A model generated the notes under the pieces. It made no database searches. It saw only the letters and a program-made list of their open reading frames with translations, and was not told the origin of the DNA. Below are positions 34,925 to 37,344 of a DNA stretch of 64,000 nucleotides, piece after piece. The first letter of the stretch is position 1. Each line of letters opens with the position of its first letter. Both the position numbers and the translations under genes were made by a program. The stretch lies in the NCBI RefSeq assembly GCF_988242995.1, contig NZ_OZ547043.1, one strand, 5' to 3'.

Positions 34925-35212
34925 ATGAAAGTAAAAAATTCTGGCTTTACTGCCAGCGGTAAAACTCGTCCTAAATTCATGCACGGCGATATTTACCGCG
35001 ATAAATACGGCAGCACGGTAATGATTAAGGGCGTGAGTGAACGACGCATTACCTACCGCCGTGAAGGATACAAATATGACTGCGTGATGCCTGTTTATCA
35101 GTTCCAGCGTGATTTTACGCTGGTGGATCATCGTGAAACCGTAAATCAGAACCGTGCAGCAAGATACATCCGCAAAATCCGCGAAATGATGGTTACTGGG
35201 GGCAAGAAATGA
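34925..35212 (+). CDS. Hypothetical basic protein (95 aa)
   Basis: ORF track; stop overlaps primase start (ATGA). Confidence 0.5.
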   Translation: MKVKNSGFTASGKTRPKFMHGDIYRDKYGSTVMIKGVSERRITYRREGYKYDCVMPVYQFQRDFTLVDHRETVNQNRAARYIRKIREMMVTGGKK

Positions 35213-37344
35213 AACGCGCACCGAACTTAAAGCACCAGCCAGCCGACAAAATGACGGAGGTTATCATTTTTGCGGGTAGTGATGCGTGGAGCCATGCGAA
35301 AGAGTGGCAGGAATGGGCAGGTAAGCATATTGCCGCCGACAATGTGCCGCCTGTCGTTCTGTCAGATGAACACCTGAAAGATATTACCGGTTATCAGATT
35401 ATTGATGATAGCCGTCAGTGTGTGCGTGTTTACCGCGCAGGGCACATCACTGAACGTAGCCTTACACAGATCGTCACATTGCTGGCTGTGGCTGGCGTGA
35501 AGACCGTATACGAATATGCGGGAATAACTGACACCAGCCCGGCGGATTTATCCGACCAGTTGCCTCGCCTCAAAGACGAATACGAGCGCGGGGAAAGTCT
35601 GGTGTTGCCCTTAAAGAAAAAAATCACAGAAAGCCAGGGCGATGATGAATTAAAACCCCGCGTTGAAAGTCGCGCCGATGGTGTTTTCTGGGTAACGCCC
35701 AAAGTTGACAAACAGTCAGGCGAAATTATCCGGCCTGAGACGTGGTTATGTTCCCCGCTTGAACTACTGGGAACGGGAACAATCGGTAAAGAGCATTACC
35801 GCGTGATGCGCTGGAAAAAACCGGCAAACCATGAATCCATCACAATGGCGATCCCGTGTGGTGGCATTGGCGACCGTGACGGCTGGCGGTTGCTTAAAGA
35901 TCACGGCCTGAACGTGACAACAAACGGCAAATACAGGGCTATCCTGGCTGACTGGATGCAGTTAAGCGGAAACCATGAGGAATGGCAGTTAAGCACAACA
36001 ACGGGGTGGCATTTTGGCGCGTACATCATGCCGGACGGTTCAGTCATTGGTGAGTCTGAAAAACCGATCCTGTTTACCGGAAAAACGGCAGCCGTTAATG
36101 GTTATTCCGTAGCAGGAACGGCGGAGGGCTGGCGCGATACCGTGGCGCGACTGGCTGGTGGTAATCCGTCCATGATGCTGGGTGTGGCGGTATCGTTATC
36201 AGCACCATTAATCGGGCTGGTGGGCGCTGACGGCTTCGGGGTACATCTTTTCGAACAATCATCAGCAGGGAAAACCACCACACAGAACATAGCATCAAGT
36301 TTATGGGGAGAGCCGGACGCGCAACGGCTGACCTGGTACGGAACGGCGTTAGGTATCGCCAACGAGGCAGAGGCACACAACGACGGGCTGTTACCCCTGG
36401 ATGAAATAGGCCAGGCCGGAAACGCACGGGAGGTGTCCACGTCGGCTTATACGCTGTTTAACGGTTCGGGGAAATTACAGGGGGCGAAGGACGGCGGCAA
36501 CAGGGAGATCAAACACTGGCGCACGGTGGCAATCAGCACCGGAGAAATGGACGTTGAGACATTCCTCAAAACGGAGGGGATAAAAGTCAAAGCGGGGCAG
36601 CTTGTCCGCCTGCTTAACGTGCCGATGGAGAAGTCTACGCAGTATCACGAATACAGCACAGGAAAGGCGCACGCAGACGCGTTAAAGGCTGCCTGGACAG
36701 AAAACCACGGGGCAGCGGGTCGTGAATGGGTTAAATGGCTGGCAGCCCACCAGCAGGAGGCTAAGGACACGGTAAGGGCGTGCCGTGAACGGTGGCGCAA
36801 CCTAATTCCGGAGAGCTACGGCGAACAGGTTCATCGCGTAGGGGAACGATTCGCCATACTGGAGGCCGCGCTTGTGCTGTCCGGTCATGTTACGGGCTGG
36901 AATGTTCAGACGTGCTGTGATGCCATTCAGCATAACTTTAATGCCTGGGTGAAGGAGTTCGGCACGGGTAACAAGGAACACAGGCAGATTATTGAACAGG
37001 CAGAGGCATTTCTTACTGCCTACGGCATGAGCAGGTTTGCGCCTGTCAATTATGACCCTGCAAGCCTGCCGATTTCAGAACTGTACGGCTACAGGGAAAG
37101 CGAGGGGCGTTACGGTGAGCCTGTTTTGTTTTACGTCCTGCCGGAGCCATTTAAATCGCATGTGGCGAAGGGATTTAACAAGGATGCCGTAGCAAGAGCC
37201 CTTCACGAAGCCGGAATGCTGAAAAAGCCAGCCAGCGGGGAAGGATGGCAAATCAGAACACCACGTCTTAAGCACATGAAGGGGGCACGACTAAGGGTGT
37301 ACGGCCTTTTACTTGCACAGGATCATGATGATGAAGGTGGTTAA
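35209..37344 (+). CDS. Island replication protein, primase/helicase-like (DUF927-type with P-loop)
   Basis: 711-aa ORF; Walker A-like SSAGKTTT; position and size typical of satellite pri-rep/alpha-like proteins; followed by iterons. Confidence 0.7.
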   Translation: MKRAPNLKHQPADKMTEVIIFAGSDAWSHAKEWQEWAGKHIAADNVPPVVLSDEHLKDITGYQIIDDSRQCVRVYRAGHITERSLTQIVTLLAVAGVKTVYEYAGITDTSPADLSDQLPRLKDEYERGESLVLPLKKKITESQGDDELKPRVESRADGVFWVTPKVDKQSGEIIRPETWLCSPLELLGTGTIGKEHYRVMRWKKPANHESITMAIPCGGIGDRDGWRLLKDHGLNVTTNGKYRAILADWMQLSGNHEEWQLSTTTGWHFGAYIMPDGSVIGESEKPILFTGKTAAVNGYSVAGTAEGWRDTVARLAGGNPSMMLGVAVSLSAPLIGLVGADGFGVHLFEQSSAGKTTTQNIASSLWGEPDAQRLTWYGTALGIANEAEAHNDGLLPLDEIGQAGNAREVSTSAYTLFNGSGKLQGAKDGGNREIKHWRTVAISTGEMDVETFLKTEGIKVKAGQLVRLLNVPMEKSTQYHEYSTGKAHADALKAAWTENHGAAGREWVKWLAAHQQEAKDTVRACRERWRNLIPESYGEQVHRVGERFAILEAALVLSGHVTGWNVQTCCDAIQHNFNAWVKEFGTGNKEHRQIIEQAEAFLTAYGMSRFAPVNYDPASLPISELYGYRESEGRYGEPVLFYVLPEPFKSHVAKGFNKDAVARALHEAGMLKKPASGEGWQIRTPRLKHMKGARLRVYGLLLAQDHDDEGG

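Follow-up and report, generated by a model that had tools for sequence, protein, structure and literature searches.

Replication initiators of the DUF927 Rep type are hexameric, self-loading helicases of 3'->5' polarity whose C-terminal winged helix binds iterons that flank an AT-rich centre and directly follow the gene (PMC9371898). The same layout is found in the origins of Staphylococcus aureus pathogenicity islands (SaPI) and of Gram-negative phage-inducible chromosomal islands (PICI) (PMC6092414, PMC9371898). In the model PICI EcCICFT073, pri-rep-ori drives plasmid replication, and the founding paper on Gram-negative PICIs describes the global repressor of these elements as unclear (PMC6092414). 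In Gifsy-1, the short IsrK RNA activates translation of a small first open reading frame (ORF), and coupling passes expression on to an anti-repressor (PMC4825925). Here we analyse a locus that brings together components of these systems. It lies in a 64-kb stretch of an Escherichia coli chromosome (contig NZ_OZ547043.1 of RefSeq assembly GCF_988242995.1; hereafter, the window), where four consecutive ORFs, the last of them encoding a 711-amino acid (aa) protein (Rep), are preceded by an IsrK-like leader and a C4 antisense RNA within an 8.95-kb island inserted at the tRNA-Pro gene proL. We consider it probable that Rep is the self-loading replicative helicase and origin-binding initiator of a PICI-like satellite, and that its operon is gated by the C4 RNA.

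The only Pfam domain detected in the 711-aa protein was DUF927 (aa 168-435, E=3e-46, 158.8 bits against a cutoff of 22.6). A phmmer search against PDB sequences matched SaPIbov1 Rep (8tch, E=8e-15) over aa 213-604, the sequence search also matching SCCmec Cch (5dgk), and the P-loop SSAGKTTT (Rep residues 351-358) aligned with the Walker A motif of both proteins. An AlphaFold (AF2) model of Rep, obtained from 50 homologs with a pLDDT confidence score of 91.7, retrieved the same two structures in Foldseek, with E=1e-22 and a template modelling (TM) score to the target of 0.75-0.77 for Cch (5dgk), and E=1e-21 and a TM score of 0.70 for SaPIbov1 Rep (8tch); BrxL, MCM, poxvirus E5 and SaPI5 PriRep scored far below them. 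Residues G354 and K355 of Walker A (aa 349-356), D398 and E399 of Walker B, and R467 are at least 90% conserved among the 50 homologs, and rep presents a ratio of nonsynonymous to synonymous substitution rates (dN/dS) of 0.075 when compared with a 91%-identical copy. The model also contains a C-terminal alpha/beta domain (aa ~606-705).

By its sequence and its predicted structure, the 711-aa protein is thus read as a DUF927 helicase-initiator with an MCM-like AAA+ motor of the Cch/SaPIbov1-Rep type. A preliminary description of the window, made from the sequence alone, had proposed a primase/helicase-like replication protein at the place where satellite elements encode their initiator, and had anticipated primase and SF3/SF4 helicase folds. 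The assignment to the replication initiator and helicase of a satellite-type island (int, alpA, rep and origin) stands, at the position occupied by pri-rep in PICIs, and structure prediction did return a helicase fold. Both the PDB sequence search and Foldseek, however, place the motor in the Cch/SaPIbov1-Rep type rather than in SF3/SF4, and a primase is not supported. Orthology with SCCmec Cch was ruled out by a score of 37.4 bits against the NCBIfam Cch equivalog NF047345, for which the cutoff is 700; the relationship is that of a distant homolog.

Two iteron clusters accompany rep, one directly 3' of the gene and another 2.2 kb further downstream, with genes for a single-stranded-DNA-binding protein (SSB), ProQ and PerC between them. 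All 11 matches to GGGACARGT in the window lie inside the two clusters, with 0.43 expected by chance. In cluster 2, the repeats span 39662-39777 and the plus strand holds two to three copies of GGGACRGGT, two of which count as GGGACARGT. The two clusters are adjacent in a Salmonella relative (L007), and the replicase gene of every relative examined is directly followed by iterons of its own, whose sequence changes with the C-terminal part of the replicase and not with its N-terminal domain. Both clusters are origin-like in sequence, and their separation recalls that of ori and crr in P4. A 91-aa ORF overlapping cluster 2 (39646-39921) is probably spurious.

The IsrK-like leader and the C4 RNA, neither of which had been reported in the preliminary description, most probably control the operon. 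The leader ends in an intrinsic terminator, detected by a terminator scan as a stem at 34344-34357 followed by a T-run, and the C4 RNA lies immediately upstream of its target sites and of the icd-like gene. This C4-icd unit has the same arrangement as P1 immI (c4-icd-ant) and as P4, in which the CI RNA is encoded upstream of alpha. Two segments of the C4 RNA are unpaired, b' (nt 43-52, UUCCUUUUGC) and a' (nt 59-66, UGUAGCAA), and exact complements of both occur twice and in the same order, as a1/b1 upstream and as a2/b2 downstream of C4.

This complementarity is maintained across relatives. Among the closest of them, those with TGTGGTAA as a' carry TTACCAC at both a1 and a2, and those with CTGTAACA as b' carry GTTACAGG at both b1 and b2, the change being compensatory in each case. 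The comparison encompassed 15 distinct modules, taken from E. coli and Salmonella, from Stx phages and a P1-like phage, and from viral contigs, and representing 8 a' types and 12 b' types; divergent C4 copies were found with a covariance model, and had been missed by single-sequence nhmmer. Complements of at least 7 nt at fixed positions were present in 13-14 of the 15 cognate pairs, as opposed to 0-9 of the ~200 non-cognate pairs. The helices of C4 also covary, with 98.3% of cells paired and double changes in 11 pairs, and none of 500 shuffles was as good. In the minimum-energy fold of the whole read-through leader, b' pairs in cis with the Shine-Dalgarno sequence.

The four ORFs downstream are organized as a tightly coupled unit. 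The preliminary description had located them correctly, together with the P-loop, the close packing of the three small ORFs and the overlap at the start of rep. The 62-aa and 61-aa ORFs overlap by 8 nt, 29 nt separate the 61-aa ORF from the 95-aa ORF, and the stop codon of the latter shares ATGA (35209-35212) with the start codon of rep, the sequence reading AAG AAA TGA with the ATG at 35209. RefSeq annotates relatives with this gene order as well, and the 4-nt overlap between the DUF4222 and replicase genes is kept in L003, L007, L011, L012, L016 and EcCICFT073; both the conserved order and the overlaps agree with the four-gene operon suggested earlier.

The small proteins, in which the preliminary description had recognized no features and for which it had suggested possible regulatory, anti-helper or anti-defence roles, do have recognizable relatives: the 62-aa and 95-aa proteins fall into the named Icd-like and DUF4222 families, the 61-aa protein into phrog_3672, and homologs of all three are present in other islands. 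The Icd-like protein matches NF033153 with 62.7 bits (cutoff 25) and is 66-69% identical in other islands, across which the DUF4222 protein is 37-63% identical. The 61-aa ORF matches phrog_3672 end to end (E=4e-13) and shares 46% identity with its positional counterpart in L012; in other islands this slot holds one to four unrelated small ORFs. The five closest relatives gave too few sites for the small ORFs, and dN/dS was measured against more distant copies. The values obtained were 0.16-0.40 for the icd-like gene, 0.31-0.37 for DUF4222 and 0.87 for the 61-aa ORF, this last value being based on 12 differences only and hence uninformative, with a weak selection signal. PDB sequence searches with the DUF4222 and Icd-like proteins returned no matches.

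The proposed mechanism follows the order of the unit, [IsrK-like leader]-[C4 RNA]-icd-like-orf61-DUF4222-rep. The C4 RNA would pair through a' and b' with a2 and b2 over the icd ribosome-binding site, either in cis within the read-through transcript or in trans after processing, and would thereby block icd translation and keep rep silent. The block would spread down the operon by polarity and by translational coupling across the 8-nt and 4-nt overlaps. With rising transcription, the short terminated leader bearing the mimic sites a1 and b1 would titrate C4, and the operon would open. AlpA may drive this rise, since AlpA activates genes of EcCICFT073 (PMC6092414). By analogy with Cch and SaPIbov1 Rep, a Rep hexamer would bind the GGGACARGT iterons through its C-terminal domain, and would then melt the AT-rich centre and self-load as an active helicase. 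The coordinates of the features on which this proposal draws, and of the rest of the island, are given in Table 1.

Table 1. Coordinates of the operon, its RNA elements, the iteron clusters and other features of the proL island (positions in the window).
Feature	Position	Strand	Remarks
IsrK-like leader RNA	34287..34363	+	Rfam RF01394; intrinsic terminator at end
Target-mimic site a1	34312-34318		Inside IsrK-like leader
Target-mimic site b1	34328-34335		Inside IsrK-like leader
C4 antisense RNA	34388..34475	+	Rfam RF01695, 76 bits (gathering score 45)
C4 target site a2	34480-34486	+	Downstream of C4
C4 target site b2	34510-34519	+	Overlaps Shine-Dalgarno AAGGAGG of icd-like gene
Icd-like protein, 62 aa	34529..34717	+	First cistron; NCBIfam NF033153; RefSeq name
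61-aa protein	34710..34895	+	phrog_3672; variable accessory slot
DUF4222 protein, 95 aa	34925..35212	+	Pfam DUF4222, E=2e-24
rep, 711 aa	35209-37344	+	Last cistron
Rep N-terminal domain, aa 1-126	35209..35586	+	Toprim-like fold lacking the catalytic residues
Rep helicase-initiator body, aa 150-711	35656..37344	+	DUF927/Cch-like AAA+ core and C-terminal alpha/beta domain
Iteron cluster 1 (putative origin)	37369..37505		2 GGGACARGT on -, 57-nt AT-rich gap, 4 on +; directly 3' of rep
Iteron cluster 2 (putative origin)	39662..39812		3 GGGACAAGT on -, 47-nt AT-rich gap, + strand GGGACRGGT, then GTATATATATAC
yejM	30066-31826		Left flank
tRNA-Pro(GGG) proL	31901..31977	+	ARAGORN; 3' end = attL
Tyrosine integrase (int)	32184..33428	+	Pfam Arm-DNA-bind_3, Phage_int_M, Phage_integrase
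AlpA-family helix-turn-helix regulator	33692..33883	+	Pfam Phage_AlpA, E=2e-6; RefSeq names near homologs AlpA family
Island SSB	37581..38006	+	Pfam SSB, E=1e-16
ProQ/FinO-family gene	38042-38578	+	178 aa in RefSeq relatives
PmgG-like gene	40088-40684	+	
attR	40902..40924	+	Imperfect repeat of proL 3' end; K-12 homology restarts at 40902
yejO	41024-43615	-	Right flank

Several observations weigh against a C4-gated replication operon in a functional satellite. The IsrK-like leader scores 47.0 bits, 3 bits below the gathering score of 50, whereas the corresponding element of relative L002 reaches 52.8 bits. A promoter scan detected no sigma-70 promoter for the leader. The C4 RNA is absent from EcCICFT073 and L012, even though the icd-like, DUF4222 and rep genes are present in both. 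The RNA gate is therefore optional among these islands; furthermore, the Icd-like protein must have a role of its own, because these two islands maintain icd-like, DUF4222 and rep in the absence of C4. There is also a small chance that the Toprim-like fold at the N-terminus of Rep supports residual or unusual priming. Finally, the ProQ/FinO gene is broken by an in-frame TAG at 38210-38212 (TGG in strain LH13-b), and the lack of recognized packaging genes indicates that the island may not be a fully competent satellite.

The notion that C4 is universal in these islands was dropped on account of EcCICFT073. A TATACT sequence at 34275-34280, accompanied by a poor -35 box, was seen by eye upstream of the leader, and its reading as a promoter element is speculation.

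An alternative that we regard as unlikely is that C4 acts mainly in trans on co-resident phages of the Stx, P1 or D6 type, interfering with their icd-antirepressor modules or being titrated by phage transcripts, and not as a gate of island replication. The leader shares 84% identity with Stx2 phages (P13374, for example) and 78% with P1-like phages, a' is the same as in P13374, and the core of b' (CCUUUUGCG) recurs in one of the two D6 C4 RNAs. On the other hand, the cognate a2 and b2 sites lie on the island's own icd ribosome-binding site and covary with the accompanying C4 in every module, and no phage examined has both the a' and the b' of the window. Action in trans and a role as the island's own gate are, moreover, not mutually exclusive.

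C4-icd modules sometimes occur twice per element, with different a'/b' types. Relative L019 carries two C4 copies (2859-2946 and 3336-3424), L011 harbours an extra Icd-like pseudogene upstream (4146-4661), and phage D6 has two C4-icd-ant modules (L050 20964-21049 and L051 29734-29821), one of which contributes the C4 RNA sharing its b' core with the window. At the position of the leader, RefSeq relatives annotate an "ash family protein" pseudogene (34110-34706, plus strand in the window). The Pfam Phage_ASH match of this ORF covers aa 56-147, or nt 34275-34550, a range that corresponds exactly to the two RNA elements together with b2. The Phage_ASH match hence appears to be a conserved RNA region read as protein, the "Ash family protein" pseudogene calls of RefSeq at this position coinciding with the RNA leader.

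The N-terminal domain of Rep, which is followed by a predicted disordered linker (aa 130-144), bears on whether the protein could also act as a primase, as the preliminary description had proposed. A bifunctional primase-helicase akin to P4 alpha or T7 gp4, with an N-terminal domain that primes and a C-terminal part that unwinds, would fit the naming of relatives as "DNA primase" in PHROG and some databases, the Zn-ribbon and Toprim N-termini of relatives that are ~49-61% identical over the helicase part, and a local motif, FAGSDAW, that resembles the primase EGYATA motif. The domain itself argues against it. Beyond DUF927, no zinc ribbon, AEP/Prim-Pol or other Pfam primase domain was detected in Rep, and aa 1-126 contain no DxD motif and no Toprim catalytic Glu, the corresponding position being occupied by Ala and, in relatives, by other non-acidic residues. 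Only G23, A26, P48, L56 and G78 are invariant in the domain, none of them acidic, whereas invariant Glu and Asp residues are found in the Toprim region of the long relatives. An hhalign comparison between the N-terminal domain and this Toprim region detected no similarity (probability 0.2%), and the link of the domain to primases therefore rests on fold alone. In addition, PHROG 1139, annotated as "DNA primase", matches Rep only from profile position 284 onward.

An exhaustive search outlined three architectures sharing the same helicase body: proteins of ~710 aa with the N-terminal domain found in the window, proteins of ~900-960 aa with Zn_Ribbon_Prim and Toprim_3, or PriCT_2 and Toprim, in its place, and proteins of ~600 aa with neither. 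The N-terminal domain is under purifying selection (dN/dS 0.13-0.17) and is probably a degenerate, inactive Toprim-like module. Judging from sequence, the 711-aa protein is probably not a primase, and we rate a primase-helicase as distinctly improbable. Priming would be expected from host DnaG, since the domain has lost the primase catalytic residues. For this variant, the "DNA primase" label attached to such proteins is probably a misnomer.

Sister islands carry this N-terminal domain at the head of replicases belonging to three unrelated helicase classes. In L011, which is also inserted at proL, and in L016 (58-59% N-terminal identity), it precedes a RepA-like AAA_25 helicase; in the helper-embedded PICI L012 (77%), a D5_N/DUF5906/Pox_D5 SF3 protein; and in EcCICFT073 (40% over aa 1-159), a D5_N/SF3 Pri-Rep. 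Similarity among these replicases stops near the linker (aa 130-144), and a DUF4222 gene lies ahead of the replicase gene in all four islands, overlapping it by 4 nt. The occurrence of one N-terminal domain with DUF4222 on three unrelated motors is a clean instance of modular replicon evolution, and points to an uncharacterised step shared in initiation. In SCCmec operons, genes for small DNA-binding proteins directly precede those for Cch and Cch2 (PMC7581432), and these proteins provide the closest analogy for the cassette. The probably dead Toprim-like domain and the coupled DUF4222 protein may constitute an adaptor that connects three helicase superfamilies (MCM-like DUF927, RepA-like AAA_25 and SF3 D5-like) to one initiation pathway, for instance by recruiting host DnaG or a helper factor.

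A function of the N-terminal domain as an origin-recognition module was considered and rejected. Islands with near-identical N-terminal domains differ in their iterons (GGGACAAGT, GGTAGACA and AGTGGGGAG), and the domain is therefore not the origin reader. Homolog searches with this domain alone returned only fragments and deletion fusions. In short proteins of other E. coli genomes (P0283, P0295, P0296, P0316 and P0323) it is fused directly to SSB or PerC, and these fusions look like products of deletions that removed the helicase motor from such islands. A capsid-forming Klebsiella island (L005/L006), which encodes capsid, protease, portal, connector, HNH and small terminase proteins, also carries a DUF927 Rep that is 65% identical and has this N-terminal domain; this island has no DUF4222, different iterons (GAACCAAC) and, in L005, no C4 match.

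The island occupies the interval between yejM and yejO, and its 8.95 kb are within the size of about 8-15 kb expected of EcCICFT073-type PICIs. Homology to the empty site of K-12 stops at 31979, at the 3' end of proL, which marks the left junction, and the alignment to this empty site pairs attR with the 3'-terminal 23 nt of proL. Every annotated gene of the island lies on the plus strand, in the order int, alpA, the two RNA elements, icd-like, the 61-aa ORF, DUF4222 and the DUF927 rep, followed by genes for SSB, ProQ/FinO, PerC, a small hypothetical protein and a PmgG-like protein. At least 80% of the island is present in 52 complete E. coli genomes and, among the copies listed, nearly all sit between yejM and yejO. 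The closest copy, in strain LH13-b, is 99.9% identical, with the TAG in the ProQ/FinO gene being one of only two base differences between the att sites. Pfam and PHROGs recognized no capsid, terS, rpp or packaging module, a cos site not having been searched for, and the PmgG-like gene is the sole virion-related gene that they identified in the island. By this content it is a PICI of the "type C" class, as the term is applied to EcCIMP1 (PMC11773190).

The missing packaging and capsid module, the nonsense mutation in the ProQ/FinO gene and the truncated N-terminal-domain fusions to SSB or PerC in other genomes could also indicate that the island is a decaying, immobile remnant, its operon a fossil or its products co-opted for host functions. 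We assign this scenario a low probability. Strong purifying selection acts on rep, int and alpA are intact, as are the iterons and att sites, and the covariation between the RNA and its targets reflects recent selection on the switch. Furthermore, EcCIMP1, a PICI also devoid of packaging genes, is nevertheless mobilised by a helper (PMC11773190). Least credible of all is that the protein serves as a BrxL-type AAA+ ATPase in defence and not in replication, for although Foldseek lists BrxL chains at E of about 1e-5, the TM score to BrxL is 0.22-0.26, as opposed to 0.70-0.77 for Cch and SaPIbov1 Rep, cognate iterons flank the gene and its genomic position is that of a PICI pri-rep.

Two further features of the island were recorded. 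Matches of the PmgG-like gene in the phage collection are confined to P1, P7 and D6-type phage-plasmids, the best being D6 with 72% identity, and the gene is present only in the window and in LH13-b, the sister islands lacking it. Its presence may reflect a P1/D6-like helper, or else an ability to interfere with the assembly of tails. Between int and alpA (33444-33489) lies a near-perfect 36-nt palindrome (AATTGGTTCCTAATTGGTACCAATTAGGAGCCAATT). The Rfam int-alpA RNA (RF02996) has no match in the window and is found in L003, L004, L007 and L008 at the position of this palindrome.

The individual parts of the locus, comprising a DUF927 Rep, a C4 RNA, an Icd-like protein and the backbone of Gram-negative PICIs, are all of known families. 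The literature searched contained no report of a P1/P4-type RNA leader combined with a PICI replication operon encoding a Rep with a probably dead Toprim-like domain that is shared across three helicase superfamilies, nor any paper connecting C4 or IsrK RNAs with PICIs. Gating of the replication operon by the RNA switch, if real, would explain how such islands stay silent, and would predict immunity-like specificity groups recognizable from the sequence itself. The three-part switch formed by IsrK, C4 and their targets may be the master repressor of a large subset of Gram-negative PICIs. Likewise, the a/b specificity types may define satellite "immunity groups", with cross-talk to P1, D6 or Stx-type phages carrying the module. 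The island may also be a satellite of P1/D6-like phage-plasmids, because it carries a D6-type PmgG baseplate-tube protein; to our knowledge, no satellite of such phage-plasmids has been described. Taken jointly, an RNA master repressor, an adaptor cassette and a satellite of P1/D6-like phage-plasmids form a tentative proposal that we hold to be doubtful as a whole.

Among characterized initiators, SaPIbov1 Rep (8TCH) and SCCmec Cch (5DGK) share with the window Rep the DUF927 domain, the overall fold (TM scores of 0.70-0.77) and the Walker A and B motifs, as well as inverted iterons around an AT-rich centre directly 3' of the gene. With Cch, the window Rep also shares the presence of a gene for a small protein, LP1413 in the case of Cch, directly upstream in the operon (PMC7581432). 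In contrast, sequence identity to both proteins is only 16-17%, and neither has the N-terminal Toprim-like domain and linker. The window island also differs in its Gram-negative host, in an upstream partner that is DUF4222 instead of LP1413 or Pri, and in its second iteron cluster 2.2 kb away.

The closest match in overall organization is EcCICFT073 (PMC6092414), which presents the same backbone of int, alpA, icd-like, small ORFs, DUF4222, replicase, ori, SSB and PerC. Its Pri-Rep resembles the window Rep in its N-terminal domain (40% identity over aa 1-159), in the 4-nt overlap with DUF4222 and in the iterons 3' of the gene. It differs in a motor that is D5_N/SF3 and not DUF927, and in the iteron sequence (GGTAGACA). 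EcCICFT073 also lacks the C4 RNA and the IsrK leader, and has the capsid and head-decoration genes that are missing from the window island.

With P1/P7 immI and P4 immunity, the window shares a C4-family RNA in the operon leader, with processing and control of the operon known in those systems and presumed here, and two antisense segments complementary to sites upstream and downstream of the RNA. The downstream b site coincides, as in P1/P7 immI, with the ribosome-binding site of icd. In both systems the effector is coupled to a small first ORF, as it would be in the window and, as in P4, the window effector would be a replication protein. Unlike P1, this effector is a DUF927 helicase and not an antirepressor and, unlike P4, it is not an alpha primase-helicase, nor does the island have sid, delta, psu or epsilon. 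The leader in the window differs from both systems in having an IsrK-type terminated form, as found in Gifsy-1 (IsrK-orf45-anrP; PMC4825925). By analogy with Gifsy-1, the window leader would either terminate as a short small RNA or read through into a translationally inactive mRNA, and the short form would activate translation of the small first ORF, with coupling carrying expression downstream. The two differ in that the cargo in the window is a replication operon instead of an anti-repressor, and in that C4 is explicit here as the inhibitory partner.

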